This document shows, in pieces, positions 44,196 through 63,343 of a stretch of 64,000 nucleotides of DNA. The notes beneath the pieces were generated by a model, which saw only the letters and a list, made by a program, of their open reading frames with translations, was not told the DNA's origin and searched no databases. The stretch's first letter is position 1, and every line of letters begins with the position of its first letter. This stretch comes from Promethearchaeota archaeon (GTDB taxonomy: Archaea > Asgardarchaeota > Heimdallarchaeia > Hodarchaeales > Hodarchaeaceae): contig JBHLMN010000012.1 in the NCBI GenBank assembly GCA_048938105.1, forward strand, positions 96,001 through 160,000. Reading direction: 5' to 3'. Made by a program: the position numbers and the translations under genes.

Positions 44196-44230
44196 CGACA
44201 CAAACTTTAGATAAGTTCATTTTTTAGAGG

Positions 44231-45361: not shown

Positions 45362-45504
45362 AGAGAAGATAAGTAGATAATTTTAAATGTTTTATTTTTT
45401 CTAGCATTTATGAAATTTCTGGCATTTTCGAAAAATATAAAAACACTTGCTTAAGTTCTGTCAATTGCGATAGTCATGCAAAAAAAATTGATTAGGTCTT
45501 AAAA

Positions 45505-46392: not shown

Positions 46393-46406
46393 TAGGAGGC
46401 AGTAGA

Positions 46407-48107: not shown

Positions 48108-48147
48108 TCTTCTTTCTCTTTTTTTCTTTTATACTAAGAGATAAATA

Positions 48148-48789
48148 TCATATCAAAGAGAATTGAATCACTACAAAGAGCATGATACTAAATGTAATTA
48201 CTGAAATCACTGTGTCGAATTTTCCTGTCTTTAGAAATGGGATAAATAATGGAGTTTTGCTTTTATAACTAGTATAATCAGCGCCAAATTTCTTCAATAG
48301 GTACTGATCTTCTATAAGTGCAAGAATAATATAAGCCAGTAGTTGTAAATACCATAGTATTATTGTTTCTTCCGCTGACAGCCAACTCATACCAAAAAAG
48401 AAAGTAATATAAAAATAACTCCACCCTGTCAAGCCAATTGTCAAAAGTAGAAGACCAGTATACTGGGGATGTCTTATAAATCGATAAGGGCCAGAGGTGA
48501 CTAATCCCCTTCTCTTTTTTACGCCGAGATAAACAATTGAATAAATTATCAATACAACGCTTATCATAATCAAAATTTTCCCAAAGAATACCTCATTAAA
48601 ATTGAGAAGGCTGGCATAGCCTTCAATGATACTGCTAGAAAGATTGGGAACCAAGGCACCCAATAACAGAATTACAGGAGCAGCCATGAGTGGTATCCAT
48701 ACCCAGATTCCTGGAAGTTGCTGAACTAAAAGAAATAAATATCCAGCCGTGCCAAAAACAATAGCTTGAGCTCTCTCTAGTTTTTTCAT
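48148..48789 (-). CDS. ICMT/PEMT-family membrane methyltransferase
   Basis: LVTSGPYRFIRHPQYTG, IEDQYLLKKFGADY..Y...TPLFIP. Confidence 0.85.
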   Translation of the reverse strand: MKKLERAQAIVFGTAGYLFLLVQQLPGIWVWIPLMAAPVILLLGALVPNLSSSIIEGYASLLNFNEVFFGKILIMISVVLIIYSIVYLGVKKRRGLVTSGPYRFIRHPQYTGLLLLTIGLTGWSYFYITFFFGMSWLSAEETIILWYLQLLAYIILALIEDQYLLKKFGADYTSYKSKTPLFIPFLKTGKFDTVISVITFSIMLFVVIQFSLI

Positions 48790-49113
48790 TGAACATCATC
48801 TCTATCTTATGCAAATTTTCTAGTCTAACCTCATTTCCTACGTTTAAAACCATAAAAACTACCTCTTATAAGCCTATAGTTTTCTGCAAGTTGGGAGATA
48901 AAAGAGATGAATTAGTACACTTGTCCTAATGGATAGAACAAAGCATTTCACATTGTGGTTCCTCTGTTCGACTTTTGATACATTTTCATTACATGTATGT
49001 TTACGGAATGAAATAAGATCTAACTAAGACATTTGTAATAGAATCTAGTTTTTATTACCTAACAGCAATGTTTTTCAGGAGATCTTTACTAGATTTTCTC
49101 TTGAGGTAGAAAA

Positions 49114-49698
49114 TTGGATAAAATGCTCTTAGAAATTCCATCAATGATAGAGACCAAACAATTAATCATCAGAAAGTACAAAAAAGGTGATGGGATGCCA
49201 CTTCTTGAATTATTTGAAAGAAACGATAATCGTGAGCATCTAAAAGATCATGTGTATGAAGCATCCACTATAATGACCCAAGAAGAGGCAGAAATTAGAG
49301 TTAGGCGTTTTATTGCCTCTTGGGTCGCACGAAAGAGATTTGTTTTGGGTGTATGGTTAAAAGCTTCGAACCTATATATTGGCCAAATCTGGATCGAACC
49401 CAAAAAATGGGAAGTTCCCTCATTCGAGCTGGGATGGTTTTTAGACCGATCTTATCAGGGACAAGGATTAGCAACAGAAGCAGCGAGAAGAGCAATTGAA
49501 TTTCTTTTTAATGATTTGAAAGCTCATAAAATCATCATTTTAACTCGTGATGACAATGTGAGAAGCTATAAACTAGCTGAAAGATGTGGATTTACCAAAG
49601 AAGGGTATCTTAAGGATCATGGTATTAAAAATGGTAAAAGATATGGGTTATTTTGCTACAGGTTGTTAAAACCCGACTATAAAATCAAAAATGACTGA
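49114..49698 (+). CDS. GNAT acetyltransferase, RimJ/RimL family
   Basis: IETKQLIIR, ELGWFL..SYQGQGLATEA, NVRSYKLAERCGFTKEG. Confidence 0.92.
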   Translation: MDKMLLEIPSMIETKQLIIRKYKKGDGMPLLELFERNDNREHLKDHVYEASTIMTQEEAEIRVRRFIASWVARKRFVLGVWLKASNLYIGQIWIEPKKWEVPSFELGWFLDRSYQGQGLATEAARRAIEFLFNDLKAHKIIILTRDDNVRSYKLAERCGFTKEGYLKDHGIKNGKRYGLFCYRLLKPDYKIKND

Positions 49699-49761
49699 TT
49701 ATGGTTTTTCTGCAGTATAAGAGTTAGTATTTAGATTTCAATTCCTTATTCAATCATCTTT

Positions 49762-50703
49762 TTAGCTTAATATTTCAATTAATTTGACCAAATCCTCTTT
49801 ATTGATGGCAACAACATCTGCTTCAGGAAATATATTGCGGTTGTTTTCTGAAATTCCCTGTCCTCCGATTGCAATACGAATTTGGTTTTTGAAAACATTA
49901 TGTAAATACTCTAAATTTCGTTTAAGAGTACCAAGATATAACGGAAGGGTAATGGAGATAAATATCCAATCAGGTAATTCAGGAAGATCTTTGATATATT
50001 TGATTAAGGATTGGATGGGTAAAGCTCGCCCCAGATTAATAATCTTGTAATTTAAATCCCGAAGAATATATTCTAAGGCAAATAAACTGAGAACATGTCT
50101 TTCACCTTCTACAGGTACTAAAATGATAATTCCTTTTTCCTCTATATTTTCATTTACTGGTATTCTTGCAACGATTAGCTCTTCAACGCGATTAGAAATA
50201 ATGTGTTCTTCCGCAGTTGAAAGATTCGCTTGAGCCCATTGTACACCGACCTCATGCATTAGTGGTGTGATAAAATCAACAATAAAGGGTGTACTATTAG
50301 GAAACATTGATTCTATGTTTACTGAGAACTCCTCAACATCATAATTTGATGATTTCAGATATCTGATCATTTCTTGTATGGAGGCTAATTTTAAAACAGA
50401 GGGTTTTTCTATTCTTCCTTTCTCCTCAGGCTTCTTCTTTTCTTTTAATATCTCATTCTCATGTATATATAGTTCTTTGATTAGATCATCAGTTAAATAT
50501 ACAACAGTATACCGCCCCCGTTTAAGTGGGCGTCGTTCGATTTCGATATAACCTTGTAAATTTAGTTCTTTTATGGCATTAGAAATTGTTGAACGTTTAA
50601 GATCTAAATTGGATGCAAGTTCAGAAACAGGGACTTCCCTTCCGCGATTTTGCCTTAAGTATCGAAAAATACGATCTCTGGCTGGTAATTGGACATTTTC
50701 CAT
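49762..50703 (-). CDS. wHTH + B12-binding regulator with CarH/LitR-type photoreceptor signature
   Basis: N-terminal MarR/ArsR-like wHTH (VSELASNLDLKRSTISNAIKELNLQGYI); helical cap PLMHEVGVQWAQANLSTAEEH (W-x9-EH); Rossmann domain EGERHVLSL, NLG..LP, ISIT, IGGQG; downstream of crtB on the same strand. Confidence 0.85.
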   Translation of the reverse strand: MENVQLPARDRIFRYLRQNRGREVPVSELASNLDLKRSTISNAIKELNLQGYIEIERRPLKRGRYTVVYLTDDLIKELYIHENEILKEKKKPEEKGRIEKPSVLKLASIQEMIRYLKSSNYDVEEFSVNIESMFPNSTPFIVDFITPLMHEVGVQWAQANLSTAEEHIISNRVEELIVARIPVNENIEEKGIIILVPVEGERHVLSLFALEYILRDLNYKIINLGRALPIQSLIKYIKDLPELPDWIFISITLPLYLGTLKRNLEYLHNVFKNQIRIAIGGQGISENNRNIFPEADVVAINKEDLVKLIEILS

Positions 50704-50772
50704 AAGGCATTGTTACCTTCTTATTGATATTCTTATGATTTCTTCATGACTTACTCTTATTTTATGAACCAG

Positions 50773-51717
50773 CTAAAGTTTACGAAGGTACTCTAAACGT
50801 ACTTTAGTTGCCAAAATAATCTTTCTTAGTTTAGAAACAACTGCCCGTTGATTTAATATTTGATAATCAATTCTTTTTATCTCATTTAGAATTTCCCCAT
50901 AGACTCTTGAGGCCACTTTTACAGTATAAGCTCCTGCAGGTGGTAATTCCTCAATACCAAGATCAGCTATCTTATAAAGAGCTTTCGCTCGCTCTGATTC
51001 GTAACGAATGAGTGATTTGAGGTTCTCATTCACTTTATCACCCCTTAGATCCTCAATCGTAACCTGATAATCATTCCGAGTTTCTTCTGGTAGATATATT
51101 CGCCCCTTGAGGAAATCCTCTTTGATATCTCTTAATATATTGGTTAATTGCATTGCTCTACCTAGATCTGCAGCTCGTGCTAGAGTTCGTTTTTCTGGAT
51201 TTTTGATGAAGATGTGAGTCATCATTAAACCAACAGTACTTGCAACCCGATACATGTATAAGTCAAGTTCTTCTTCTGAATAGTACTCGGTTTTTATAAG
51301 ATCCATTCTCACACCTTCTATAAGCTCATGCATGTAATTAACTGGAATTTGATGTTTACGTAACGTATCTCCAAAGGCATGAAGGATAGGATTTGTAGAG
51401 CTATATCCATTGGCCAATTTTGTTATAGTACTTTTCAATCGATCAAGTTCAAAATTAATCTTATCAATCGTAATCCCCTTAGGGGCTTCATCAACTATAT
51501 CATCACTTAAACGACATATAGCATAGAGAGCAGCAACGCTTTTACGCTGATCTTCAGGTAAAAATCGACTAGCGAAATAGAATGACTTGCTATGCTCTAT
51601 CATCCAGTCTAGACAGATTTGATAGCTTTCTTCAAGTGTTTCATCCATCAAACTATGTTTAGGTGTCGTACTTTTGGGAAGAAGTTCCCAATCAATTGTT
51701 TTGTGAGTTGAATACAT
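50773..51717 (-). CDS. crtB: Phytoene synthase
   Basis: HSKSFYFASRFLP, ALYAICRLSDDIVD, YMYRVASTVGLM, LGRAMQLTNILRDIKED..GRIYLP, RAVVS. Confidence 0.95.
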   Translation of the reverse strand: MYSTHKTIDWELLPKSTTPKHSLMDETLEESYQICLDWMIEHSKSFYFASRFLPEDQRKSVAALYAICRLSDDIVDEAPKGITIDKINFELDRLKSTITKLANGYSSTNPILHAFGDTLRKHQIPVNYMHELIEGVRMDLIKTEYYSEEELDLYMYRVASTVGLMMTHIFIKNPEKRTLARAADLGRAMQLTNILRDIKEDFLKGRIYLPEETRNDYQVTIEDLRGDKVNENLKSLIRYESERAKALYKIADLGIEELPPAGAYTVKVASRVYGEILNEIKRIDYQILNQRAVVSKLRKIILATKVRLEYLRKL

Positions 51718-51739
51718 TTTCTAATTCACTTATTAATAT

Positions 51740-51840
51740 TTCATGAATTAGTTCAACTTCATGAATAAACATTTAAATATTTTTCGAATGTAGGTAATCA
51801 ATCAAAAAAGTGTCATTTGTCAAGTAGACATTACTTTTTT
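51740..51840. promoter_or_regulatory. Divergent crtB/crtI promoter with candidate operator palindromes
   Basis: TTCATGAA palindrome at 51740-47 and 51758-65; TTTAAATA box near 51772; nested inverted repeat AAAAAAGT(51804-11)..TGTC-n5-GACA(51818-30)..ACTTTTTT(51833-40). Confidence 0.5.
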
Positions 51841-51861
51841 GGATAAATAAAAGTGAGAAAA

Positions 51862-53436
51862 ATGAGTAATGGACATAATAAACGTAATATAGCCTTTGAT
51901 AATAAAAACCCTGAAACGTTTCTCGAATCAGTGGTAATTATAGGCTCTGGGATTGGTGGACTGGCGGCGGGAATACGCCTTCAGACAACAGGAAAATTTA
52001 ATGTTACTATTATAGAAAAACTAGACCAAGTTGGTGGTCGGGCCAGAGTCTTTAAAGATCAAGGGTTTACTTTTGATGGAGGTCCTACGGTAATAACTGT
52101 ACCTGACATTTTTAAGGATTTATTTACTTTACCTGGTCGAAAAATGGAGGATTATGTCGAATTAATACCAGTGGAGCCGTTTTATCGAATCCATTTTAAC
52201 GATGGGACATTTTTTGATTATTCTACTCCGGAAAAAAATATACCTCAAATTGAAAAAGTAAATCCTGAAGATGTAGAAGGATATAAACGCATGCTTAAAG
52301 CAGTTCGACCGATCTACGAGAAGGGGTTCAAAGAATTATCATTTAAACCTTTTAACAAGTTTACTTCAATGCTTAAAGTAGCTCCCTCCCTCATCAAGTT
52401 ACAATCATACCGTTCAAATTATAAATTTGTCTCTAAATATATAAAAAATGAGAATCTCCGAATGGTATTTAGTTTTCACCCTTTACTTATTGGGGGGAAT
52501 CCTTTCTCGGTTCCATCAATTTATAGTCTTATTCAATACCTGGAAAAAGAATTTGGAGTTTGGTTTGTGCGTGGTGGTACAAATGCTTTAGTTCAGGCGT
52601 TAGCAAACTTATTTGAGGAGCTTGGGGGTAAAATCATTTTGAATAGTGAGGTTAAAAAAATTGAAGTTAAAGATAATCAAGTAGAGGGCGTTTTAACTGT
52701 TTCGAATGATTTTTATCCAAGTAAAATCGTAATAAGTAATGCTGACCCCGCTTTTACATACACAAAAATGATTGATGCAGAGTGGCGCAGGAAAAACAGT
52801 GATAAGCGTTATAAAAAAGCGAAATATTCTATGGGATTAGTTGTAATTTATTTTGGAACGAAAAGACAATATCCAAATATGAAACATCACACTATTATTT
52901 TGGGTCCCCGGTATAAAGGACTAATAGAAGATATTTTCAAGAAAAAGATTTTAGCAGAAGATTTTTCGAGCTATTTACATCTCCCCACTCGGACTGATCC
53001 AAGTTTAGCTCCTGAAGGACATGAAGCCTTTTATATCCTGATTCCCGTCCCTCATCAAGATTCTGGTATTAATTGGGAAGAAATGGCTGAACCATTTAAA
53101 CAACGAATCTTTGATTTTCTGAATGAAAATTATCTCCCTGAACTAAAAGAGAACTTAGTGACAGAGCGAATTTTTACTCCTCTAGATTTTGAACGAGACT
53201 ATAATAGCTTTAAAGGATCTGGTTTTTCTGTTGAACCAATTTTTACTCAATCAGCGTGGTTCCGTCCACATAACAAATCTGAAGATATTGATGGTCTTTA
53301 TTTAGTGGGTGCTGGAACCCATCCAGGAGCAGGATTGCCTGGAGTTGTCTCCAGTGCAAAAGTAACCACAGATTTGATCATCAATGGGAAAAATGGATTT
53401 TCAAAAAAACCCTCTGGAATAAGTAATGCTAATTAG
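51862..53436 (+). CDS. crtI: Phytoene desaturase (CrtI family)
   Basis: IGSGIGGLAAGIRL, GGRA....GFTFDGGPTVIT, FSFHPLLIGGNPF, QSAWFRPHN, LYLVGAGTHPGAGLPGV. Confidence 0.95.
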   Translation: MSNGHNKRNIAFDNKNPETFLESVVIIGSGIGGLAAGIRLQTTGKFNVTIIEKLDQVGGRARVFKDQGFTFDGGPTVITVPDIFKDLFTLPGRKMEDYVELIPVEPFYRIHFNDGTFFDYSTPEKNIPQIEKVNPEDVEGYKRMLKAVRPIYEKGFKELSFKPFNKFTSMLKVAPSLIKLQSYRSNYKFVSKYIKNENLRMVFSFHPLLIGGNPFSVPSIYSLIQYLEKEFGVWFVRGGTNALVQALANLFEELGGKIILNSEVKKIEVKDNQVEGVLTVSNDFYPSKIVISNADPAFTYTKMIDAEWRRKNSDKRYKKAKYSMGLVVIYFGTKRQYPNMKHHTIILGPRYKGLIEDIFKKKILAEDFSSYLHLPTRTDPSLAPEGHEAFYILIPVPHQDSGINWEEMAEPFKQRIFDFLNENYLPELKENLVTERIFTPLDFERDYNSFKGSGFSVEPIFTQSAWFRPHNKSEDIDGLYLVGAGTHPGAGLPGVVSSAKVTTDLIINGKNGFSKKPSGISNAN

Positions 53437-54260
53437 TGGAAGAAATTGTAATGTTAACATATTTCATCTTCCTCCTTTTCTTTATTGTTATACCTTTGAT
53501 GGTAATCAGTTTTTTTTATTATAAGAAATATCGTGGAGGGGAAGAATATCAAAAAACGATGATAAAAAAAATCTTAATTGTGTTAGCGATATTAATAATT
53601 GTAGCTATTACTTATACTACTCCATGGGATAATTTTCTCGTCGAAAATGGCATTTGGTATTATGAGACATCGAAAGTTATGGGTATTTTAATTGGTTTTG
53701 TACCCATTGAAGAATATGGCTTTTTCGTATTGCAGACTCTCTTTATTGGATTGCTATTCGGATGGATTCTGCTTCATAGAAAGAAAATCAGTCATAATCA
53801 GAATAATTTTAGAGTTAATTTACGCCTGATTTCAGCGATTGGGCTACTTATTGTTTGGATTGTAGGATTTCTTGCATTTATTAACAGAATAGAAACTTTA
53901 ACTTATCTGAATTTAATCCTTTTATGGGGAATACCTCCAATAATGATTCAACTGATCTATGGCGCTGATATTCTCTGGTTGTACAATCGAGACCTTATCT
54001 CAGTCATCTCTCTCTCAACTATTTACTTAGCTATTGCAGATACTATTGCGATTGCAGATGGAATCTGGACAATTAGTATAAATACATCAACAGGGATTCT
54101 TTTGGCTGGAGTTTTACCTATTGAAGAGTTTGTCTTTTTCTTGGTCACTAATATATTAATTACTTTTGGATTAACCTTAATGATTGATTCTAGGAGTATT
54201 GATAGATTTCATCAATACTTTTCTAGATTAAAAGAACACAAGTGGAGAAATAAGTTATGA
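53436..54260 (+). CDS. crtY: Lycopene cyclase, fused heterodimeric type (CrtYc/d / CarR-like, two domains)
   Basis: YTTPWDNFLV..GIW...PIEEYGFF and AD.IAI..GIW...LPIEEFVFF; translationally coupled to crtI. Confidence 0.9.
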   Translation: MEEIVMLTYFIFLLFFIVIPLMVISFFYYKKYRGGEEYQKTMIKKILIVLAILIIVAITYTTPWDNFLVENGIWYYETSKVMGILIGFVPIEEYGFFVLQTLFIGLLFGWILLHRKKISHNQNNFRVNLRLISAIGLLIVWIVGFLAFINRIETLTYLNLILLWGIPPIMIQLIYGADILWLYNRDLISVISLSTIYLAIADTIAIADGIWTISINTSTGILLAGVLPIEEFVFFLVTNILITFGLTLMIDSRSIDRFHQYFSRLKEHKWRNKL

Positions 54261-54377
54261 CCAGTAGAATTTTTGTACAGGAATTGTATACATGCTTCAA
54301 AAATTTAGAAAACTGCAATATGAAGATATATTGGGAATACCTCCCTTTCTTTAACTCACACAATTTGAGGTAATTTC

Positions 54378-54830
54378 ATGTTAAATAACGTAATAGAATA
54401 TCTTAATGAGTCTGTAATACCTTTGCGGCTTTCTGGTACCACTAAATCAGGCTGGCCATTTGTAATGAGCCTTTGGTATGTTTATTTAAATGAAAAAATT
54501 TACTTAGCAACTATAAAATCAGCTAAAGTCGTTGATTATCTTTCTAATAACCCCAAATGTGCTTTTGAAATTGCCAGTGATACTCCACCTTATTGTGGGA
54601 TTCGAGGACAAGCAATGGCAAAAATTATTGAATCTAAGGGGGATGAAATTCTAAAAATCCTTCTAAATCGTTATCTAGGAGGAGAAAATAGTCCTTTAGC
54701 CCGAAGACTGTTGAATCAACGTATACCAGAGGTTGCGATTGAGCTTACTCCTGTTAAAGTGTATCAATGGGATTATAGTAAGCGAATGATTGACTCGATT
54801 GAATTTTCTTCAGTTAAAAAGTGTCCATAA
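54378..54830 (+). CDS. Pyridoxamine 5'-phosphate oxidase-like flavin-binding protein
   Basis: PLRLS....GWPFVMSLWY, CAFEIA...PPYCGIRGQA, WDYSKRM. Confidence 0.85.
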   Translation: MLNNVIEYLNESVIPLRLSGTTKSGWPFVMSLWYVYLNEKIYLATIKSAKVVDYLSNNPKCAFEIASDTPPYCGIRGQAMAKIIESKGDEILKILLNRYLGGENSPLARRLLNQRIPEVAIELTPVKVYQWDYSKRMIDSIEFSSVKKCP

Positions 54831-54867
54831 ATAAGAACGATAAAAAAACCAGTAAAAAGGTGATATT

Positions 54868-55287
54868 ATGTCAGATATCAAATATTCTGCTGGAGTATGC
54901 AATATCGGTGACGCTGAAATAAAACAAAGACGTCGATTAGGATATATAGGCATTGGTCTTACTGTGATAGCAATTATTGTATATTTAGGATTGATTTATT
55001 CTATAAAATTAGATCCATTCTTTGGAGTGATTATTTTCATACCTGCTGAAATGTCAGCTATTGGGTTAATTCAAGCTAGGAACAAATTTTGCGCTGCTTA
55101 TGGATTGATTCACCAACAGAACGTTTCCTCAAGCTTAGGCTTAACTGTGAAAATAGGCAATAAAAATTCCCAGAGAAAGGATAGGAACAAAGCTCTTAAA
55201 ATTATTTTTCAATCCCTAGTAATTGCGATTATCATTACTGTTTTTACAGTTATTGGAGGGATTTTGATAGCTCAAAGTATTATTTAG
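54868..55287 (+). CDS. 3-TM conserved membrane protein with two Cys motifs (DUF2892/YgaP-like pattern)
   Basis: GVCNIGDAEIKQRRR and QARNKFCAAYG; GGTGA RBS. Confidence 0.6.
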   Translation: MSDIKYSAGVCNIGDAEIKQRRRLGYIGIGLTVIAIIVYLGLIYSIKLDPFFGVIIFIPAEMSAIGLIQARNKFCAAYGLIHQQNVSSSLGLTVKIGNKNSQRKDRNKALKIIFQSLVIAIIITVFTVIGGILIAQSII

Positions 55288-55376
55288 GTTTGAATATAGG
55301 TTGAAAAAAAGCATAAGAGATAAATATGAATCAAATCAATATACTCAATCTTAGGGAGAGGATTTTTCCTACTCCA

Positions 55377-56114
55377 TTAAAAAATTCGTCCTAGTGACGC
55401 GTCTAAGATTTTTCCAGTCATTAGAGGAGTAGTTGCAGCAAATTCTATCATTTCATTCAAATCCTTAGGTAATAATGGGTAATTAAGAAGCTGTTTTGAT
55501 ATTAATTTCGATGATAGAACCTCAATTGTTGTACCATTATCCATAGATTTCTTTTCCAATTCTCTATTATGTCGATCCGTAAAAACATATGTAGGAGAAA
55601 CTCCGTTAATTCGAATTTTGGGAGCCAAAACTCTAGCCATTGTACGAATTAAATAGACTAATCCAGCTTTCGCAACTCCATAAGGCATTTTATCCAATGA
55701 AGGTTCATAAGCAGCAGAACTAACGATATGTACTATAGCTCCGCCTTCTATCATAAGTTCAGCTGCCATTCTTGTTAATAAGAAAGCAGATGTTAGATTC
55801 ACATTTATTACACGATTGAAAAATGAAGCATCCACTTCTAATGGATTTTTTGAAGCCAAGGATCCCCCTATATTATTTATCAGAATGTCTATTGATCCAA
55901 TTTTAGTCTGTACCCATTTCTTTACCTTTCTAATTCCTTCCTCGGTTGTGCAATCAGCTGCAATATTATTAATTCCTGGAAAACGATCATTTATCATATT
56001 TAGACTGGATATGAGAACCTCATTATTCTGATTAGAAAGTTTTCTCATAATTGCCTCTCCAATCCCTCCAACAGCAACACCAGTAACTAGAATTTTCTTA
56101 TTTTCGATGATCAT
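55377..56114 (-). CDS. Short-chain dehydrogenase/reductase
   Basis: LVTGVAVGGIG, DILINNIG, VNL, YGVAK, IRINGVSP. Confidence 0.9.
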   Translation of the reverse strand: MIIENKKILVTGVAVGGIGEAIMRKLSNQNNEVLISSLNMINDRFPGINNIAADCTTEEGIRKVKKWVQTKIGSIDILINNIGGSLASKNPLEVDASFFNRVINVNLTSAFLLTRMAAELMIEGGAIVHIVSSAAYEPSLDKMPYGVAKAGLVYLIRTMARVLAPKIRINGVSPTYVFTDRHNRELEKKSMDNGTTIEVLSSKLISKQLLNYPLLPKDLNEMIEFAATTPLMTGKILDASLGRIF

Positions 56115-56159
56115 GATTAATTTCCTCAGTTATGTTGTTAATGGTTTAATTTATTACAT

Positions 56160-56648
56160 CTAGTCATCTATTTTCAGAGTTTGAGTTTTAAGTAATTTAT
56201 AATTTTTAGGAAATCCCCAATCTTCAATCTTATTGTAACTTGTTTTTTTTGATCGAAAATGTACCCATATTGTTGTACTATCAAGAAGTGGATTAGCATG
56301 GTAATGCTTTTGATCACCATATCGAAAAGCTTCTAGTACTAGGGGTAATTCCTGACGAAAAATTCTATCACGAAACTTTAAAGGGCCAATTCCCCCACTT
56401 ACTTGACAATAGACATGGAGTGAATATACATTTTCGGTTTTCAACCATTCAGCTAACACTTCATCCCGCATTATCCGTGTTTGCCATCCTTTTAGTTGTT
56501 TTTTGTTAAACTCATGGGCAATGGTGAGAAATAAATCTCCTGTCCGATCTGAATGGGTTAATGTATAGCAACGAGGTACTAGAGGAGAATCAATGGTTGT
56601 TGGGGGTATAAATGTAACATTTAGTTTATTTGGGTTTAAGCGATTCAA
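56160..56648 (-). CDS. sgr: Stay-Green (SGR) family protein, putative Mg-dechelatase
   Basis: PRCYTLTHSDRTGDLFLTI, RDEVLAEW, LHVYCQVSG, RIFRQELPLVLEAFRYGD, WVHFRS....YNKIEDWG; all SGR blocks present. Confidence 0.92.
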   Translation of the reverse strand: MNRLNPNKLNVTFIPPTTIDSPLVPRCYTLTHSDRTGDLFLTIAHEFNKKQLKGWQTRIMRDEVLAEWLKTENVYSLHVYCQVSGGIGPLKFRDRIFRQELPLVLEAFRYGDQKHYHANPLLDSTTIWVHFRSKKTSYNKIEDWGFPKNYKLLKTQTLKIDD

Positions 56649-56674
56649 GGTAGAAATCCTTCTATTTGAAAGAA

Positions 56675-58177
56675 CTAAGTTGTAGATAAATAATAGGGCT
56701 TAGGAGTAGAGCTTATTTTAGTATATGTAAGACTATCTCCAGGAATATCCCTACAAATTTCCTCTAACAGCTTTTTTGACAGCATGTCGAAAAATGGTTG
56801 GATCATAAACCAATAGGCTATCCCAATAAGCCCTTTTGGGACTATTCGAAAAATCTGATGAAGTTCAATTTTTTTGTGATTAATACGCCTTAAACGATAT
56901 CTTAGGATGGTATAACCAGGTAAGATGAAATCTGTATGTAATGTTAATTCTTTCTTTGGAATTTTATTCTGAATTGAAAGAGGAGTCTTTTTCATCTCTC
57001 CCTTGTCCTTAAAACCTTTGAAAAAACCGTTTAGAAAAGCACCAAATTTCCATAAGTATAAATTGATCTGAAAATTTCTATATTTCTCAATCTGAAGTAA
57101 TTTGTTCCACAAATTCTCAGGATTACTAGTTAAAATAGCCTTACGATGATCTTGGAAGACAAATCCTCCAGACCAGGATGGATCCCCTGGAATGTGCCAT
57201 TCAACGGGTAAATCATAATAGCTAGAATAACTTCCGTACCTAAGATACTGTTGGGGGTTTAATGCTAATCGAATTGCTTGTTTATGGTTTAGTAACTTCT
57301 GTGGAATCAATTCTCGTATCCTAAAATCATGACAAACAACCTCATTCTTCATTCCATCTATTAATGGACGAGCTAAAGATGATTGAATGCCTGTAATCAA
57401 TCTTATCCAATAGGAGCTTAGGCTAGGAGTGAAGAAAGGGATAGGGAGAATTAAACGCTTTGGTAGTGCCATAATTTCCACATAACTCTCCATAAACTGT
57501 TTATAAGTGATAATATCTGAACCACCAATATCAAAGGTCTCACCGATTGTTTCTGGTACATCTAAACAGTCAGTTAGATATTTCAGAACATTTCGAATAG
57601 CTATTGGTTGATTTCTTGTTCTAAGCCACTTGGGTGTAATCATAATTGGCAATCTATTGACTAGATACCTCATCATCTCAAAAGCTGCGCTTCCACTCCC
57701 AATAATAATTGCTGCACGTAACGTTGTAACTGGTACTGAACATGAATTCAGTATTCTGGAAACTTCGATTCGAGACTGTAGATGCTTACTTAATTTTTCT
57801 TTTTCGTCCCCTAATCCCCCAAGATAAATAATTCTTTCAATTGCTGCCTTTTCAGCTGCAATTATTGTGTTTTGGGCTGCAATTCTATCAGATCTAATAA
57901 AATCTTTTATTTTTCCTTCCATAGAATGGATTAAATAGTAAACCGAGGAGACTTCTTCCATTGCGTCTTCTAAGGTTTTAATATCGAAAACATTAAGATT
58001 TACCGTTTTCAAATTCCTATGATGACTCCATAATCTCATATTTAGCTTGTCTTTTGACCTAAACCCCACTCGTACAATATATCCTTTCTTTAAGAGTTTT
58101 GGTACAAGTCTGGAACCTATGTAACCTGTGGCCCCAAGTACAAGAACTTCTTTTTGTTTCAAGGGAAATCTACTCAT
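56675..58177 (-). CDS. Atypical SDR (YbjT-like) with C-terminal DUF2867-like domain
   Basis: GATGYIGSRL, YYLIHSM, IYLGGLG, SKHLQSR, LRAAIIIGSGSAAFE, RLPIMITPKW, QPIAI, GDPSWSGG, PKGLIGIAYW. Confidence 0.88.
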   Translation of the reverse strand: MSRFPLKQKEVLVLGATGYIGSRLVPKLLKKGYIVRVGFRSKDKLNMRLWSHHRNLKTVNLNVFDIKTLEDAMEEVSSVYYLIHSMEGKIKDFIRSDRIAAQNTIIAAEKAAIERIIYLGGLGDEKEKLSKHLQSRIEVSRILNSCSVPVTTLRAAIIIGSGSAAFEMMRYLVNRLPIMITPKWLRTRNQPIAIRNVLKYLTDCLDVPETIGETFDIGGSDIITYKQFMESYVEIMALPKRLILPIPFFTPSLSSYWIRLITGIQSSLARPLIDGMKNEVVCHDFRIRELIPQKLLNHKQAIRLALNPQQYLRYGSYSSYYDLPVEWHIPGDPSWSGGFVFQDHRKAILTSNPENLWNKLLQIEKYRNFQINLYLWKFGAFLNGFFKGFKDKGEMKKTPLSIQNKIPKKELTLHTDFILPGYTILRYRLRRINHKKIELHQIFRIVPKGLIGIAYWFMIQPFFDMLSKKLLEEICRDIPGDSLTYTKISSTPKPYYLSTT

Positions 58178-58189
58178 TCTAAGAGGACA

Positions 58190-58960
58190 TCAATAATCTT
58201 GACGAGCTTTCCAGAAATCACCATAAAAGAAAAATCCAATCAGTTGAGAAAATACGAATATTATTGATATAACTATTCCTAAATACTGTAATATAAGAAT
58301 TTGATTACTATGGAAGATATACAGAGGGATAAAGTTCAATAAGAACCAAATCCACGAAAGAATTGGAGCAGATATGAACATAAGAGATCTTTTCCATTTT
58401 GAAACAGATAAGAAGGAACTCAAATCATATTTTATTCCAAAAATAGGAAGTTTCGTTATAGGTGTCCAAGCTAGCAAGTTTGATTTACGAAATGTGGATT
58501 TGAAAATAAAATAATTTCTAAAGTTTAATCCTAAAAGAAAACCAAATATGCAATGGATTACGGTATGAGAGAGCATAAAGTTTACAAAACTGATTAGAAA
58601 GAACAAAATAACACTAAACCAAAAATCTACAGAAAAATAAAAGGCTAAAAAATAAAGAATTTCTGAGATGAGAACACCAACTGAGAATAGTAAAGTTCCG
58701 ACTTTAATTGAAAATTTTGGAACGTTCCAACTATCGAAGAAGAATTCATCAATTCTCCCTAAAATATCTATTTCTTCCTCTGTTATTTTTACTTTTCGTG
58801 CATATTTTACAGCAGTTTGATATTTTCTCCAATGACTCTTCCGATTTAATGTTCCTGTTTCATATGAATCCTCTAAATCCTTGATATTCCTACTAAAATT
58901 AGTGTTATCCATTTGAGAACCTTCCCTAGAACTGTAGTTCTTATTAGTTATACTTAACAT
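58190..58960 (-). CDS. Uncharacterised membrane protein with HxxxH motif (M50/zincin-like, lacking the catalytic Glu)
   Basis: ~4 TM; LSHTVIH, ISAP, GDFWKA; directly downstream of heliorhodopsin on the same strand. Confidence 0.6.
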   Translation of the reverse strand: MLSITNKNYSSREGSQMDNTNFSRNIKDLEDSYETGTLNRKSHWRKYQTAVKYARKVKITEEEIDILGRIDEFFFDSWNVPKFSIKVGTLLFSVGVLISEILYFLAFYFSVDFWFSVILFFLISFVNFMLSHTVIHCIFGFLLGLNFRNYFIFKSTFRKSNLLAWTPITKLPIFGIKYDLSSFLSVSKWKRSLMFISAPILSWIWFLLNFIPLYIFHSNQILILQYLGIVISIIFVFSQLIGFFFYGDFWKARQDY

Positions 58961-59019
58961 TATAATTCTAGTGATCGAGGTTTGAAAATAAAAAGAGGGG
59001 AAGGATCATAATGACCCAA

Positions 59020-59832
59020 TTAAGCAAATATTAACCCCATAAATACAATCCAAGCTAATGCTGATTTTGCAAAGAGGCTTAATAATTGATAACCTCGTTC
59101 TCCATATAGATAATCTTTCCATGGGCCTATTTTCTTATACTGAAGAAACATATTCAAGGCAAAGCTGTTAAAGAAGACGAAATAAACTACTAAGGCAATA
59201 TAGACAAAAGTAGGAACTTCTCGTCCAACTGTGTTAATACTCAAGAATGTATCAAGGATGACGATCCAGGGCATTATTCCAGCTATCCATCCTAGGATAT
59301 AAGGAGCCCAGCTTGTTTTTTCAGTATATTGGTTATAAGTCTCCATTAACAACCCAAACATGTTCATTAATCCATTAAGCACGAATATCAGAGCAAGAAT
59401 CCAAAATTCTAGTATTCCAAAAGCTAAAGCAATGAATATGATCATCACTGAACTGGAAAAAGCATACTCATACCAACGTACTGGATTCATTTCTTTCTTT
59501 AAATTGGTAACATATTTGTTATATAATGGAAAAGCAATCAGTAAATGAGCAATAGCTGACATTAGAAGAAAACTAGCAAGCAGGATACCTGCAATGTTTT
59601 CAAAAGTGAAAAAAACTTCGGGGATAGGCTCAAGAACTGGACGAGTACCAGTTAATTCTTTTATTCCTAAATACGACCTATAAATGTCGATTTTGAAGTT
59701 TTTTATTTCATCAATTACTAAACTCAGAGCAAATATAACTGTTGCTTGCACTAAGTGCAAGATACCCATGGCTATATTGAATTTCCGGAGATAGGAAAAT
59801 GATATTTTTGACTTTTCAATGTTAGTTGACAT
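59020..59832 (-). CDS. heR: Heliorhodopsin
   Basis: LRKFNIAMGILHLVQA, FLLMSAIAH, NPVRWYEYAFSSSVM (counterion E), MNMFGLLME, FNSFALNMFLQYKKIGPWKDYLYGERGY, LSLFAKSALAW (retinal-binding Lys); GGAGG RBS. Confidence 0.97.
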   Translation of the reverse strand: MSTNIEKSKISFSYLRKFNIAMGILHLVQATVIFALSLVIDEIKNFKIDIYRSYLGIKELTGTRPVLEPIPEVFFTFENIAGILLASFLLMSAIAHLLIAFPLYNKYVTNLKKEMNPVRWYEYAFSSSVMIIFIALAFGILEFWILALIFVLNGLMNMFGLLMETYNQYTEKTSWAPYILGWIAGIMPWIVILDTFLSINTVGREVPTFVYIALVVYFVFFNSFALNMFLQYKKIGPWKDYLYGERGYQLLSLFAKSALAWIVFMGLIFA

Positions 59833-60051
59833 TAAGCAACCTCCTATGGATTTAGACAGAAGAGTCCTTCTTTATATATTCATTATGATAATTAAAACGT
59901 AAATCACCAATAAATCTAGATCTAGAATTAATGACTTGAATCAGGATGAAGTTCTATTACTGAAAAAATAAAGAATCTATTATAATGTGAACCTAAAACT
60001 TGCTGATTGATGAACTAGTACTTCTAAAATCACAAAGAATGGTGAAGGCTG

Positions 60052-60828
60052 ATGTCTCTTACAAAACAAAAACAATTTTTGATTTATGGTAACATCTTGA
60101 GCTTTTTATTAACTATCGTGATGAATTCTTTAGCCAACATCCTTCCTTTGAATGGAAAAACAACTGCAGAACTCAGTGACTCTTTCCCTAACTTATTTGT
60201 CCCCGCTGGGTATGTTTTTAGTATCTGGGGATTGATCTACATTTTATTAGCAATTTTCACGGTTTCCCAAGCCCTTCCCAAGTATAGAGAGGAGGATGTT
60301 ATTGAAAAAATCTCCTATTTCTTTATTATAAGCAATCTGGCTAATTCATCATGGATTGTATTTTGGCACTTTGAAATAATAATCGCATCCTTATTGGTTA
60401 TGTTGATACTCCTTGTATCTTTAATACTAATCTATACCCGATTAGAAATTGGAAAGAAGCCCGTGAGTGAAAAAATTAAGATCACTTCTCATATCCCATT
60501 TAGTGTTTACCTGGGATGGATTACTGTTGCAACTGTTGCAAATGTTACAGCTTTACTTGTATCAATAAACTGGGATGGTTTTGGCATAAGTGAAGTCATC
60601 TGGACTGCAGTTGTAATAAGTGTTGCAACAATAATTGCACTAGTTATCGTATTCACCCGGAAAGACTATGCCTACGTTCTTGTCCCCGTCTGGGCTTTTA
60701 TAGGAATAGCAGTAAAGCAATTAAATACTCAAAACGATGTTGTTATAATTTCTGTTATAGCAGCAGTTATTTTAGTCATAACATTGCTTGTTAGACTTTC
60801 ATTGGATTTAGTTCAGAATCGAAAATGA
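60052..60828 (+). CDS. tspO: TspO/MBR-like tryptophan-rich sensory protein (long form)
   Basis: N.LA..LPLNG.TT.ELSD, FVPAGYVFSIWGLIY, NSSWIVFW, PFSVYLGWITVATVAN, VWAFIGI. Confidence 0.78.
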   Translation: MSLTKQKQFLIYGNILSFLLTIVMNSLANILPLNGKTTAELSDSFPNLFVPAGYVFSIWGLIYILLAIFTVSQALPKYREEDVIEKISYFFIISNLANSSWIVFWHFEIIIASLLVMLILLVSLILIYTRLEIGKKPVSEKIKITSHIPFSVYLGWITVATVANVTALLVSINWDGFGISEVIWTAVVISVATIIALVIVFTRKDYAYVLVPVWAFIGIAVKQLNTQNDVVIISVIAAVILVITLLVRLSLDLVQNRK

Positions 60829-61709
60829 ATGATAATAATTTTAGATCACTAATTACTTCACTCATAATAATATGCATTGCTGCATGTCTTGCACTCATTG
60901 GTAGCCACAGGGGTATAACTGTTTTTGGTGGAATACCAGTATTTGCACTTGGAGTAGCTATTGCCTTTATAATTCAATGGATTGCGTTTATACCTGCTTA
61001 TATCAAAAGAACAGAGAAATTTTTCGATTTGACTGGCTCTTTGACTTACAGTATTGTGATTATTTTTTCAGTTGTTTTGAGTTCTGAAATCAATATACGA
61101 TCTATTTTACTGATGTTTTTGGTCTTGATCTGGGCGATTCGCCTTGGTATGTTCTTGTTTAGGAGAATACTGAAAGAGGGTGAGGATAAACGCTTCAAGG
61201 AAATCAAAGAATCAGGTTCGCGTTTTCTATTAACTTGGACTCTTCAAGGTTTGTGGGTTAGCTTTACATTAGCAGCTGCATTGGCTGCGATCACAGTAAA
61301 ACAGAGGGTAGAATTTGGCGTCTTTGGTTTAATTGGTCTTCTGGTTTGGATCATAGGCTTTGGATTTGAAGCTGTTGCAGACTATCAGAAGAGTAAATTC
61401 AGATCTATTCCTGAAAACAAAGGAAAATTTATTACTACTGGATTATGGTCGATATCACGACATCCCAATTACTTTGGAGAGATCCTCCTATGGATCGGTA
61501 TTGCAATCATTGCACTTCCAACACTTCAAGGTTGGAGATGGCTAACACTAATTTCTCCTATTTTTGTCACATTATTATTGACCAAGGTTAGTGGTATTCC
61601 ATTACTTGAGAAACATGCAGATGAAAAGTGGGGTGGTCAGGAGGAATATGAGCAATACAAAAGTAAGACTCCAGTATTAATCCCAAGGCCATTCTTCAAA
61701 TCAAATTAA
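60825..61709 (+). CDS. DUF1295 (steroid 5-alpha-reductase/ICMT-fold) membrane protein
   Basis: TEKFFDLTGS, WAIRLG.FLF.RI...GEDKRF, WTLQGLW, EAVADYQK, GLWSISRHPNYFGE, SGIPLLE; ATGA overlap with tspO. Confidence 0.9.
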   Translation: MNDNNFRSLITSLIIICIAACLALIGSHRGITVFGGIPVFALGVAIAFIIQWIAFIPAYIKRTEKFFDLTGSLTYSIVIIFSVVLSSEINIRSILLMFLVLIWAIRLGMFLFRRILKEGEDKRFKEIKESGSRFLLTWTLQGLWVSFTLAAALAAITVKQRVEFGVFGLIGLLVWIIGFGFEAVADYQKSKFRSIPENKGKFITTGLWSISRHPNYFGEILLWIGIAIIALPTLQGWRWLTLISPIFVTLLLTKVSGIPLLEKHADEKWGGQEEYEQYKSKTPVLIPRPFFKSN

Positions 61710-61841
61710 GGAATGCTAGTTACCCATGCTGAATAACTCTTCTAACGATTAAACTCTATAACATATAAAAGATCAGAGGAAAATATTGATAAAGCTGAAT
61801 TTCGCAGTTCTTTCCTGATATATGGCTAAAATATTATTTAA

Positions 61842-62180
61842 TCAAACCAATGCATCTGATGGCCACTCTATATGAATAATAAAGGATTTTGCTGTTGCAC
61901 GGTAATATTTAAGAAAAAATCCATATTCATTTTGAACCTTTCGAGTAAGAAACGCTAAATCCTTTGAAACTAGGTCATCAAGATATCTTTTAATGGTACC
62001 AGGGTTTAGTTCGGTTTTTTGTTTCAATTCCATTATATTTAACTCCTTCTCGAGTAATAAATTGAGTATAATCTGCTTTTTTTGGTGGAATAATACTGGA
62101 ACTACAGAGGGATCATTGATTACCTTTACTTTAGGAATATCAGAATTCTCATCTGAATCTTCAGGTTTATCATAGAACAT
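61842..62180 (-). CDS. ArsR-like winged-HTH regulator
   Basis: IILNLL....NIMELKQKTELNPGTIKRYLDDLVSKDL...KYYRATAK. Confidence 0.8.
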   Translation of the reverse strand: MFYDKPEDSDENSDIPKVKVINDPSVVPVLFHQKKQIILNLLLEKELNIMELKQKTELNPGTIKRYLDDLVSKDLAFLTRKVQNEYGFFLKYYRATAKSFIIHIEWPSDALV

Positions 62181-62200
62181 TCTAATGTGATCCTAGTAGA

Positions 62201-63043
62201 TCATTCTTTTCCTTCGGTTTTTGTAGTTAATATAGTTGTGTTATAAATTCGTGTTGAGATCAAGCTAAGAATAGGTATGCCAATGAGGACATTTATAAAA
62301 GTAACAATCAAAAAAATCAGATTAAAAAATAAAAATGTCTCCACGCTGGTAACTATTAGAAGTCGAGTGATATCAACAATAAACATTGTGCCTCGAAAGA
62401 GTAGATGATATGTACCAATTGAAAAAAACAGCCGTGAGAAATGATGATTTAATATTAAAAAATTCTCAGTGAAACTTTTTTTTATTTCTTTAACTACTAT
62501 AATACTCGGGAATATTTCAATGAAAGTAATATTCAGCATAAAATCGACAAAATAAACAATAACCTTGATCAAAACTAAAAAAGTACGATCTCCTCCATTT
62601 GACTGAATTAATTCTAACAATGAGAACATACTGAAGAGTTGTTCCAGAACGATAATTAACGCATAAGGCAATGTCAACAGTGCGAAATACAGCCAAAATT
62701 TCTTAAAATAGGAAATAGATCTTCTAAACTCTGTAAATAATTCCCCAGATGTCATAATATCAAATGTTAAACCAAAAACAGTCCTTGCGTATGATAGGAG
62801 TAAGAAGAATATTAAACAAAAAATTAATAGGATAATTGGCATGAGTATTAATCTAATGATCTCATTAAATTGAAAATAGTTCTCTAGTAATACAAATCGT
62901 ATAATAGAAATACCAGTAAAAACTAATATGATAATTCCAGTTAAGAATAATATAAATGTCTTGATATATTCTTTTTTATATTCTAAGTATACTCTAAACG
63001 CGATTCTTATATCAGTTATTGACTCCTCAAGCATTCTTATCAT
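62201..63043 (-). CDS. Hypothetical multi-pass membrane protein
   Basis: ~6 hydrophobic segments. Confidence 0.7.
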   Translation of the reverse strand: MIRMLEESITDIRIAFRVYLEYKKEYIKTFILFLTGIIILVFTGISIIRFVLLENYFQFNEIIRLILMPIILLIFCLIFFLLLSYARTVFGLTFDIMTSGELFTEFRRSISYFKKFWLYFALLTLPYALIIVLEQLFSMFSLLELIQSNGGDRTFLVLIKVIVYFVDFMLNITFIEIFPSIIVVKEIKKSFTENFLILNHHFSRLFFSIGTYHLLFRGTMFIVDITRLLIVTSVETFLFFNLIFLIVTFINVLIGIPILSLISTRIYNTTILTTKTEGKE

Positions 63044-63343
63044 CGTTTCCTTGTCAAGGTAAAAATTGGTTTGTAAACTCGGGGTTTGTTTTTAATAAAA
63101 AGTTTTTTTCTAATTAAGTTTAGAGCACATTTTGGTTTTACAATTTAGATAAGTCGATTCATCAGTTGTTCAATACTTCGTATTTAACAAAAATATCTAG
63201 ACTTTAATAGATTTCCTTTGGTTTTGTTAAAATTGCAAAAAGCAGTAAATTTATAAGTTCGTTTTGCAGAAAATACAAAACGGGTAAGAATGGATTACCC
63301 GACAAATAATCTCTGTTCTACAAAAGTTTAAGGAAAAAGCGCG

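Follow-up and report, generated by a model that had tools for sequence, protein, structure and literature searches.

Introduction

The closest described counterparts of the regulator reported here are the photoreceptors CarH and LitR (TtCarH, 5C8D/5C8E; Myxococcus xanthus CarH; LitR, 3WHP), in which a four-helix bundle with a Wx9EH cap is combined with a Rossmann fold and a His lower ligand, and whose genes adjoin carotenoid (crt) genes with the operator on the promoter of the latter. CarH homologues have been described in bacteria, with MerR domains, and are defined by Wx9EH together with an ExH-containing motif; their B12-binding motif is ExHx2Gx41SxV/Tx22-27GG, and the Wx9EH cap distinguishes CarH-type photoreceptors from MetH-type domains (PMC8156234). 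Here we report a B12-binding regulator, B12reg, encoded beside crt genes in a 64,000-nucleotide stretch of DNA (hereafter the window; bases 96001–160000 of a 205-kb contig) from the metagenome-assembled genome (MAG) of an Asgard archaeon. The MAG (5.85 Mb, 99%-complete, 7% estimated contamination) is designated G000, the numbers G003–G019 refer to relatives, and L-numbers refer to fetched loci. The locus probably consists of two separately conserved light-related modules, namely a B12reg-controlled beta-carotene pathway (module A, 49762–55287) and an operon headed by a heliorhodopsin (HeR) gene (module B, 55377–61709).

B12reg shares with CarH and LitR the sensor module (a predicted four-helix bundle with the Wx9EH cap, a Rossmann fold and the His lower ligand) and the placing of gene and operator. 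It differs in having a MarR/ArsR-type winged helix where CarH has a MerR domain (a tandem winged helix-turn-helix (wHTH) in some orthologues), in its archaeal host with a TATA-type promoter, in the Ser that replaces the Gly of ExHxxG, with a spacing of 43 to SxT, and in its operator, which consists of two 8-bp palindromes 10–11 bp apart, compared with the tandem 11-bp direct repeats of CarH (PMC8156234). The best match of the B12reg sensor module in both sequence and fold is to photocobilins (SasPcob, 8J2W; AbPcob, 8J2Y; PMC10979010); unlike these, B12reg has a DNA-binding domain and is without the globin-like bilin-binding domain or an enzyme output domain. The available text on CrtR of Corynebacterium glutamicum, an organism with light-inducible carotenogenesis, describes a MarR-class winged-helix repressor which, like B12reg, is encoded beside a carotenoid operon, in that case divergently; unlike B12reg, CrtR is presented there as a sensor of isoprenoid pyrophosphates without a B12 domain (PMC5401885, PMC6739363).

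HeR genes flanked by carotenoid and UV-repair/photolyase genes have been reported previously (Bulzu 2021, PMC8612252); compared with those neighbourhoods, HeR here heads an operon with genes for the membrane protein TM256, an NmrA/DUF2867 protein, Staygreen (SGR) and a short-chain dehydrogenase (SDR). Its product resembles TaHeR (6IS6) in the conserved Lys, Glu and two His. Compared with AbSGR-h of Anaerolineae (7Y5Y), the SGR keeps the active-site residues but belongs to an archaeal host without detected tetrapyrrole synthesis genes, and its gene lies within the HeR operon. Archaeal Staygreen homologues were already known, and no paper treating heliorhodopsin and Mg-dechelatase together was found in the literature searched. 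The presence of crt and heR genes in the Heimdallarchaeia pan-genome, and the carotenoid genes of 'Ca. Kariarchaeum pelagium', have been documented in a paper (PMC12137139, Extended Data) that, in contrast to the locus described here, nowhere mentions B12 or cobalamin. No description of an archaeal CarH-type regulator was found in the literature searched, the coverage of which was incomplete. An earlier note on this DNA, made from the sequence alone, had suggested that the combination was new for an archaeon. That suggestion is reduced by the known flanking of HeR by crt genes (PMC8612252), by the crt/heR pan-genome (PMC12137139) and by an Anaerolineae crtI-crtB-crtY-HeR-SGR row (see below), while what is newer is the B12 switch in an archaeon, together with its operator.

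Results

B12reg combines a winged helix with a CarH-like B12 module

Sequence and fold comparisons showed that in B12reg a MarR/ArsR-type winged helix at the N-terminus is followed by a C-terminal CarH-like B12 module (four-helix bundle plus Rossmann fold). No MerR model in Pfam or NCBIfam matched the N-terminus, whereas the HTH_11, MarR_2, HTH_27 and ArsR-type models did. In 12 orthologues, drawn from two families, W156-x9-E166-H167 and E201-x-H203 do not vary, and the complete B12 motif, otherwise near-canonical, reads E201-x-H203-x2-S206-x43-S250-x-T252-x27-G280-G281, in which the His, SxT and GG are kept. The AlphaFold 2 (AF2) model (predicted local distance difference test (pLDDT) score 86) gave photocobilin 8J2W as its best Foldseek match (E 1.4e-10), and further matches to the MerR-family B12 domain of Chloracidobacterium (8JBS), AerR, TtCarH 5C8D (9e-9) and LitR, with a TM-score by target of up to 0.75 over about 210 columns; photoreceptor folds ranked ahead of methionine synthase. 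The best sequence matches in the PDB were likewise photocobilins and CarH. Taken together, these motifs and the modelled fold are best explained if B12reg is a CarH analogue in which the same adenosylcobalamin (AdoCbl) light-sensing module is carried on an archaeal-style MarR/ArsR winged helix. A wHTH-wHTH-B12 architecture with an extra winged helix (364–393 aa as called) was seen in L018, L023, L024, L025, L026, G003 and G014.

In a survey of 300 Asgard genomes from 70 genera, B12reg was present in only two genera, and all of the fetched loci adjoin crt genes; genuine CrtI was found in 55 of the 300 genomes, belonging to several families. Homologues of B12reg labelled Kariarchaeaceae exist. 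An exhaustive search of 1.84 billion representatives returned about 14 full-length B12reg clusters, followed by a sharp drop to matches of the B12 module only. Two distant full-length matches, an XRE-HTH + B12 protein and an ArsR/MarR + B12 protein, both with Wx9EH, indicate that non-MerR CarH-like regulators occur elsewhere and are rare. The former protein (L121; GCA_035466115.1, DATIVE010000574.1), which has an XRE-type HTH, Wx9EH and ExH, is encoded directly beside a heliorhodopsin gene. Ordinary MerR-type CarH homologues with Wx9EH adjoin SGR in four Chloroflexota loci.

A conserved and specific operator lies at the crtB promoter

The core order crtY<-crtI | crtB->B12reg was found in 13 loci (the window and 12 fetched loci) of two Heimdallarchaeia families, two of the fetched loci coming from the second family. 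Alignment of the 13 crtI|crtB gaps revealed TTCATGAA-N10-11-TTCATGAA or a one-mismatch variant in every one, the half-site being an 8-bp palindrome. In the window, the main operator ends 22 nt before the crtB ATG (51717) and a TATA-like box lies 5 nt upstream of it; in most loci of the genus the operator pair is located directly 3′ of a TATTTAAATA box on the crtB side.

The specificity of the operator was assessed by counting the exact pattern in 40 genomes, with the reversed pattern as control. The result showed 13 exact pairs, of which 11, each from a different genome, are located in the crtI|crtB gap, compared with a single hit for the reversed pattern; genomes without an exact pair in the crt gap had no exact pair anywhere. 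The other two pairs are intragenic (G009) or overlap the 3′ end of a gene (G000). The exact pair thus occurs twice in the 5.85-Mb genome G000. Its second copy (G000:C4:94786–94813; L027:4787–4814), TTCATGAA-N12-TTCATGAA, overlaps the 3′ end of an unassigned 366-aa open reading frame (ORF) and precedes a gene for an Lhr-type DNA helicase by 230 bp. Light control of a repair helicase would be of interest if this pair were real; however, with about 0.15 pairs expected per genome, it and the intragenic pair of G009 are most simply attributed to chance and were not accepted as true targets.

A secondary, degenerate operator between crtB and B12reg is conserved as the same site, in the same position, among the three closest relatives (L015–L017) and possibly serves autoregulation of B12reg. 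The operator was not found upstream of HeR or the TspO-like gene in G000, nor upstream of HeR in 10 relatives. Since the operator is at the crt promoter and no copy lies upstream of HeR, the most fitting interpretation of B12reg is that of a local regulator dedicated to the crt module. The wHTH-B12 regulator with a conserved, specific operator on an archaeal crt promoter is the most solid and the newest element of the locus. A CarH-like AdoCbl photosensor tied to crt genes had been proposed in the earlier note, and the conserved synteny, sensor motifs, fold and operator on the crtB promoter all support that proposal.

B12reg might instead sense cobalamin supply rather than light and tune the isoprenoid/carotenoid genes to the cofactor. 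HemB and HemC gave no match in G000 and no tetrapyrrole synthesis genes were found in the genome, so that the organism is apparently a tetrapyrrole auxotroph that must scavenge B12; non-photic B12-binding domains (MetH, corrinoid proteins) are also among the matches of B12reg. However, the Wx9EH cap, a marker of photoreceptors (PMC8156234), is invariant in B12reg, all of the top fold matches are photoreceptors, and the sole conserved targets are carotenoid genes, which include no B12-dependent step. We therefore regard cobalamin sensing as very unlikely and retain the interpretation of B12reg as a light-responsive regulator. G000 encodes a CobA-type adenosyltransferase and several B12-dependent proteins; as neither HemB nor HemC was found, the organism would have to make AdoCbl from cobalamin that it scavenges.

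Gene content of the locus and integrity of the contig

The locus comprises 13 contiguous ORFs in four blocks, confirming the gene layout described previously: [B12reg<-crtB], [crtI-crtY-PNPOx-TM139->], [SDR<-SGR<-NmrA/DUF2867<-TM256<-HeR] and [TspO-like-DUF1295->] (Table 1). Gaps within blocks range from −4 to 117 bp, and the two divergent gaps measure 135 bp and 219 bp. Pfam and NCBIfam gave strong support for phytoene synthase, CrtI-family desaturase, Staygreen, heliorhodopsin, DUF1295 and SDR. The earlier gene calls were right overall, and four labels (crtY, PPOX, TspO and an HxxxH protein, here TM256) were refined by these searches. In particular, 'PPOX' in the sense of protoporphyrinogen oxidase was rejected in favour of a weak match to PNPOx / F420 'PPOX-class' split-barrel proteins. 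Family matches exceeded the curated cut-offs for CrtB, CrtI and CrtYc/Yd, no NCBIfam equivalog cut-off was reached, and the lycopene cyclase was invisible to Pfam. An alternative ATG start of crtI is located at 51862. Atlas searches with TM256 and TM139 gave unannotated clusters only. Rfam and tRNA scans of the window gave no matches, and a repeat search of 44000–64000 detected no repeat bounding the modules.

Table 1. Positions in the window of the genes and regulatory sites of modules A and B
Feature	Position	Strand	Supporting match or remark
B12reg, wHTH + B12-binding regulator	49762..50703	−	HTH_11/MarR_2 + B12-binding, all weak in Pfam; NCBIfam weak
Secondary degenerate operator, TTCATAAA-N10-GTCATGAA	50743..50768	−	Between crtB stop and B12reg start
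crtB, phytoene synthase	50773..51717	−	SQS_PSY, 248 bits
Main operator, 2x TTCATGAA	51740..51765	−	Half-sites 51758–51765 and 51740–51747, spacer 10 nt
TATA-like box ATATTTAAAT of crtB promoter	51771..51780	−	Read from sequence
crtI, phytoene desaturase	51853..53436	+	TIGR02734, 604 bits
crtY, fused lycopene cyclase, CrtYc/Yd type	53436..54260	+	TIGR03462, two CarR domains, 111 bits
PNPOx-like / F420 'PPOX-class' split-barrel flavoprotein	54378..54830	+	20.8 bits, below cut-off
TM139, 139-aa membrane protein	54868..55287	+	No family match; accompanies PNPOx-like gene
SDR245, classical short-chain dehydrogenase	55377..56114	−	adh_short, 110 bits; last gene of HeR block
Staygreen (SGR; Mg-dechelatase homologue)	56160..56648	−	Pfam, 166 bits
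NmrA-like atypical SDR, 500 aa	56675..58177	−	NmrA/NAD_binding_10 + weak DUF2867-like C-terminal domain
TM256, membrane protein	58190..58960	−	No known family; invariant SHxxxH; likely start Met17
Heliorhodopsin (HeR)	59020..59832	−	PF18761, 286 bits, model positions 1–241 of 242
TspO-like membrane protein, 258 aa	60052..60828	+	Weak TspO_MBR, 27.9 bits; divergent from HeR
DUF1295, steroid-5-alpha-reductase-like membrane reductase	60825..61709	+	Pfam, 237 bits

Assignment of the organism to a Hodarchaeales-type Asgard archaeon was upheld by orthologues 70–94% identical in records labelled Hodarchaeota, Hodarchaeales, Hodarchaeum mangrovi, Heimdallarchaeota or Promethearchaeota. The estimated contamination of the MAG and the GC content of the contig (0.334, compared with about 0.35 genome-wide) would fit an assembly artefact that placed genes of different organisms side by side. 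Against this, unitigs from the best-holding sequencing run were identical to the window, with an even depth of 12–15 over both modules; the module junction was spanned by one unitig (55024–56367) and also by contigs of about 97% identity from mangrove metagenomes of a separate study. In addition, same-genus genomes hold the 70–94% identical orthologues of both modules, crtY-PNPOx-TM139 is found again in G018 and G010, and PNPOx-TM139...HeR is found again in G011. An artefact is thus extremely unlikely, and the contig appears neither chimeric at this locus nor bacterial.

Modules A and B are probably conserved as separate units

Comparison with the relatives showed that the two halves of the locus are not in fixed linkage, contrary to the earlier description as a single island. 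The crt core and HeR lie at 1.54 Mb and 2.53 Mb, about 1 Mb apart, on the single contig of G009, and on different contigs in G011, the closest relative. G011 keeps PNPOx-TM139...SDR-SGR-NmrA-TM256-HeR|TspO-like-DUF1295 together, and G018 and G010 keep crtY-PNPOx-TM139 together; as relatives split at different points, G000 looks like the joined form of their arrangements. In every relative having both, the genes for B12reg and the cyclase are about 3 kb apart. Among 20 same-genus genomes, HeR was present in 13 and the cyclase in 12.

The locus had also been interpreted as one integrated regulon, in which B12reg and heliorhodopsin would jointly control all 13 genes for the production of quenching carotenoids and the detoxification of exogenous chlorophyll-type photosensitisers. 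The contiguity of the 13 genes and the exchange of accessory genes between the crt and HeR modules, which suggests a shared function, speak for such a regulon, as do the tetrapyrrole-linked families (Staygreen, TspO-like and PNPOx-like, and a SOUL protein beside a TM256/TspO-like/NmrA trio), for which any substrate would be foreign given that HemB and HemC were not found in the genome, and the XRE-HTH + B12 protein with Wx9EH encoded next to HeR on the contig of another organism. However, the operator occurs at the crtB/crtI promoter, with a weak copy before B12reg, and neither HeR nor the TspO-like gene is preceded by one: it is absent from the HeR|TspO-like gap and from upstream of HeR in 10 relatives, and the exact pairs taken as targets are confined to crt promoters. 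The halves are unlinked in G009 and G011; HeR, SGR and CrtI are widespread in Asgard genomes without B12reg; and no evidence was found of any of these proteins acting on chlorophyll here. A single regulon is therefore improbable, and two separately conserved modules remain the preferred interpretation. Handling of exogenous chlorophyll-type photosensitisers by some of these proteins would nevertheless be compatible with the intact Staygreen active site and with HemB and HemC not being found.

Further rearrangements were observed around the modules. To the right of the locus (61842–64000) lie genes for an ArsR/TFIIE-alpha-like HTH protein (112 aa), a 280-aa ORF and a CAAX-protease-like protein; in G011 (L016, C18) these right-flank genes border the B12reg side of the crt module, indicating rearrangement between genomes. 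In L018 (G009:C1:1532000–1548000), crtY is followed on the same strand by NmrA/DUF2867, TM256 and TspO-like genes, and beyond B12reg are found a PNPOx-like gene, an N-terminal Staygreen fragment (C1:1543065–1543223) and second crtI and crtB paralogues. The PNPOx-like gene recurs beside the crt or the HeR module in relatives, and a Pyridox_ox_2 protein is encoded in a light island of Asgard family f17.

Module B belongs to a recurrent heliorhodopsin–Staygreen network

The closest match of HeR was TaHeR 6IS6 (E 3e-61). Four residues do not vary among 13 orthologues, namely the Schiff-base Lys K256 in TM7, the counterion Glu E122 in TM3, H26 and H96. HeR is the sole rhodopsin found in G000, in which no type-1 rhodopsin was found; the photolyase N-terminal domain (PF00875) also gave no match there.

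SGR (PF12638) matched 7Y5Y (AbSGR-h) with E 1e-45. In AbSGR-h, D34 and D62 are catalytic and H32, R26, Y28 and T29 have supporting roles (PMC8531759). The result of the comparison showed that R26, Y28, T29, H32, D34 and D62 are all conserved here, with D34, D62 and H32 invariant in 11 Asgard orthologues, and that D112 aligns with AbSGR-h D114. As judged from the alignment, SGR has retained all of the residues of demonstrated importance in AbSGR-h and is predicted to have an intact active site. A C-terminal Staygreen fragment (model 105–144) with two TAG interruptions was noted elsewhere in the genome (G000:C39:223443–223562) and is probably a pseudogene remnant.

The TspO-like gene gave the only TspO match in the genome (PF03073, 27.9 bits against a cut-off of 24); this match covers residues 49–167 of a 258-aa protein of divergent sequence, compared with the family's five-helix architecture of about 150–170 aa. 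In G009, and on a Joint Genome Institute (JGI) contig carrying a SOUL gene, the gene is accompanied by TM256 and NmrA/DUF2867. The JGI contig (L032, JGI 3300041074) encodes in a row a TM256 homologue, a 121-aa ORF, a TspO-like protein, a 496-aa NmrA-like protein and a SOUL haem-binding protein, indicating that the TM256/TspO-like/NmrA trio is a unit of its own. Four relatives also have an SDR gene in the vicinity of HeR/SGR.

HeR and SGR co-occur in 52 of the 300 Asgard genomes (odds ratio 11.9, uncorrected for relatedness), and in 19, from two families, they are at most 10 kb apart. A Staygreen-centred scan with one genome per species, in which 80 loci were kept, included 46 loci of Chloroflexota. 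HeR is directly upstream of SGR in 11 of these 46; NmrA/DUF2867 was found in six, DUF1295 in five, a TspO-like gene in two and crt genes in two to three. This recurrence in Asgard archaea and Chloroflexota implies that the family set is a light-associated neighbourhood across two domains, which agrees with the link to light drawn for these genes in the earlier note, and the HeR–Staygreen network is real and recurrent.

Several individual loci illustrate the variety of these neighbourhoods. In L098 (Anaerolineae MAG-31, JACIWR010000270.1), crtI-crtB-crtY-HeR-SGR run in one direction within 6 kb. In L074 and L079 (Anaerolineae), a DUF1295 gene stands next to HeR-SGR, and its product is 62–63% identical to the DUF1295 protein of the window; so high an identity across domains suggests gene transfer. 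L033 (G099:C2:8000–27000), from Asgard family f17, is a light island without HeR or B12reg that contains genes for UbiA prenyltransferase, a CrtI paralogue, CrtB, CrtI, Pyridox_ox_2, photolyase, Staygreen, AhpC/peroxiredoxin, fasciclin, a 212-aa type-1 rhodopsin, an ATP10-like protein and NmrA/DUF2867. A recent transfer of Staygreen from Chloroflexota to Hodarchaeales was rejected, because in an SGR tree, unrooted and hence giving no direction, the Hodarchaeales fell inside a larger Asgard clade (support 95 in the Shimodaira–Hasegawa-like approximate likelihood ratio test, SH-aLRT); the copies of family f14 group apart, with Anaerolineales.

TM256 and the source of retinal

Alignment of 11 TM256 sequences showed an invariant S-H116-x3-H120 and a C-terminal G-D232-(F/L)-W-K-A motif. 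The atlas structure rows pointed to Peptidase_M50, and with the AF2 model (pLDDT 88) VIA-align gave SpoIVFB 8VJL at Z 7.6, tied with unrelated chains; a Foldseek search of the PDB gave no match. TM256 is not a site-2 protease in the usual sense, since HExxH is not present (T/A/C/V at the Glu position in 11 of 11 sequences, with D232 invariant), and the model is possibly that of a degenerate site-2-protease-like core.

HeR requires retinal and its Schiff-base Lys is kept, and neither Blh/Brp (PF15461) nor an RPE65-type oxygenase (PF03055) gave a match at E <= 1 in the 99%-complete genome. The crt module might then mainly supply retinal for HeR, by means of an unrecognised beta-carotene-cleaving enzyme among the conserved uncharacterised proteins, rather than serve photoprotection. 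The cyclase is present in 11 of the 13 HeR-positive genus genomes and HeR in 11 of the 12 cyclase-positive ones, and TM256, with its invariant membrane His-His-Asp set, is encoded within the crtI-crtY operon of G009 and immediately behind HeR in G000. However, kinship inflates this co-occurrence; TM256 was not found in the HeR-positive G004, G012, G018 and G019, and two genomes that lack both HeR and the crt cyclase encode it; HeR is missing from genus g6, which has B12reg and crt genes, and the cyclase from many HeR-positive Asgard genomes. Moreover, retinal or apocarotenoids could be scavenged, and light-derepressed carotenogenesis is classically photoprotective (PMC8156234). Retinal supply as the main role is thus rather unlikely. 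TM256 was rejected as a general retinal-forming enzyme, its distribution not tracking that of HeR, and remains a candidate only.

Discussion

In the mechanism proposed for module A, CrtB would convert geranylgeranyl pyrophosphate (GGPP) to phytoene, CrtI would form lycopene from it, and the fused CrtYc/Yd cyclase would yield beta-carotene as the predicted product. In the dark, AdoCbl-loaded B12reg would oligomerize on the two TTCATGAA half-sites just downstream of the crtB TATA box, where it may block the pre-initiation complex or the start of transcription, probably also for the divergent crtI-crtY-PNPOx-TM139 operon. Light would break the Co–C bond, the oligomer would disassemble and transcription would begin. 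B12reg, presumably co-transcribed with crtB and with the weaker site in front of it, would probably limit its own level, and AdoCbl would be provided from scavenged cobalamin by the CobA-type adenosyltransferase of the genome. Module B, with its own promoter region, would stand outside B12reg control. Its most likely targets are membrane pigments or lipids during light stress, HeR being the putative sensor.

Several points weigh against this interpretation. As regards the sensor, B12reg has Ser at the Gly position of ExHxxG, where 10 of 12 orthologues have Ser, Ala or Pro; SxT follows at a spacing of 43 compared with 41; and the Pfam scores of the B12 domains of B12reg are under the curated cut-offs. 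As regards repression, the crtB transcription start would fall inside the operator, a repressor layout that we infer from the usual geometry of archaeal promoters, while in two loci of the genus (L019, L020) the best TATA-like element comes after the operator and not before it; no RNA run holding the locus was found among the sequencing runs searched. As regards the independence of the modules, degenerate, weaker B12reg sites elsewhere, including near HeR, would escape counts of the exact pattern, and the PNPOx, TM139, TspO-like, TM256, NmrA/DUF2867 and DUF1295 genes stand beside crt or beside HeR depending on the relative, implying that the border between the modules is fluid and that some co-regulation is possible.

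It can also be speculated, as a tentative idea with a small chance of being right, that TM256, NmrA/DUF2867, the TspO-like and PNPOx-like proteins, TM139 and DUF1295 form together with Staygreen an undescribed pigment pathway, leading either from beta-carotene to retinal or to a HeR-gated disarming of foreign chlorophyll or porphyrin. To our knowledge, no physiological role is established for either heliorhodopsins or prokaryotic Staygreen proteins. Their recurrence with the same reductases and membrane proteins, with or without crt genes, provides a short list of candidates for such roles. If the two-module interpretation is true, a genus with a beta-carotene pathway and a retinal protein, in which no cleavage enzyme was found, presents a concrete gap in retinal biosynthesis.

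If true, B12reg would be the first archaeal light switch based on B12 for which an operator has been identified, would belong to the lineage closest to eukaryotes, and would represent a bacterial-type sensor adapted to archaeal TATA-based transcription through a swap of its DNA-binding domain. One protein and a 26-bp site make up a small system that is easy to handle in vitro and might, in that case, serve as an optogenetic part. The locus thus gives testable clues to the light response in relatives of eukaryotes.

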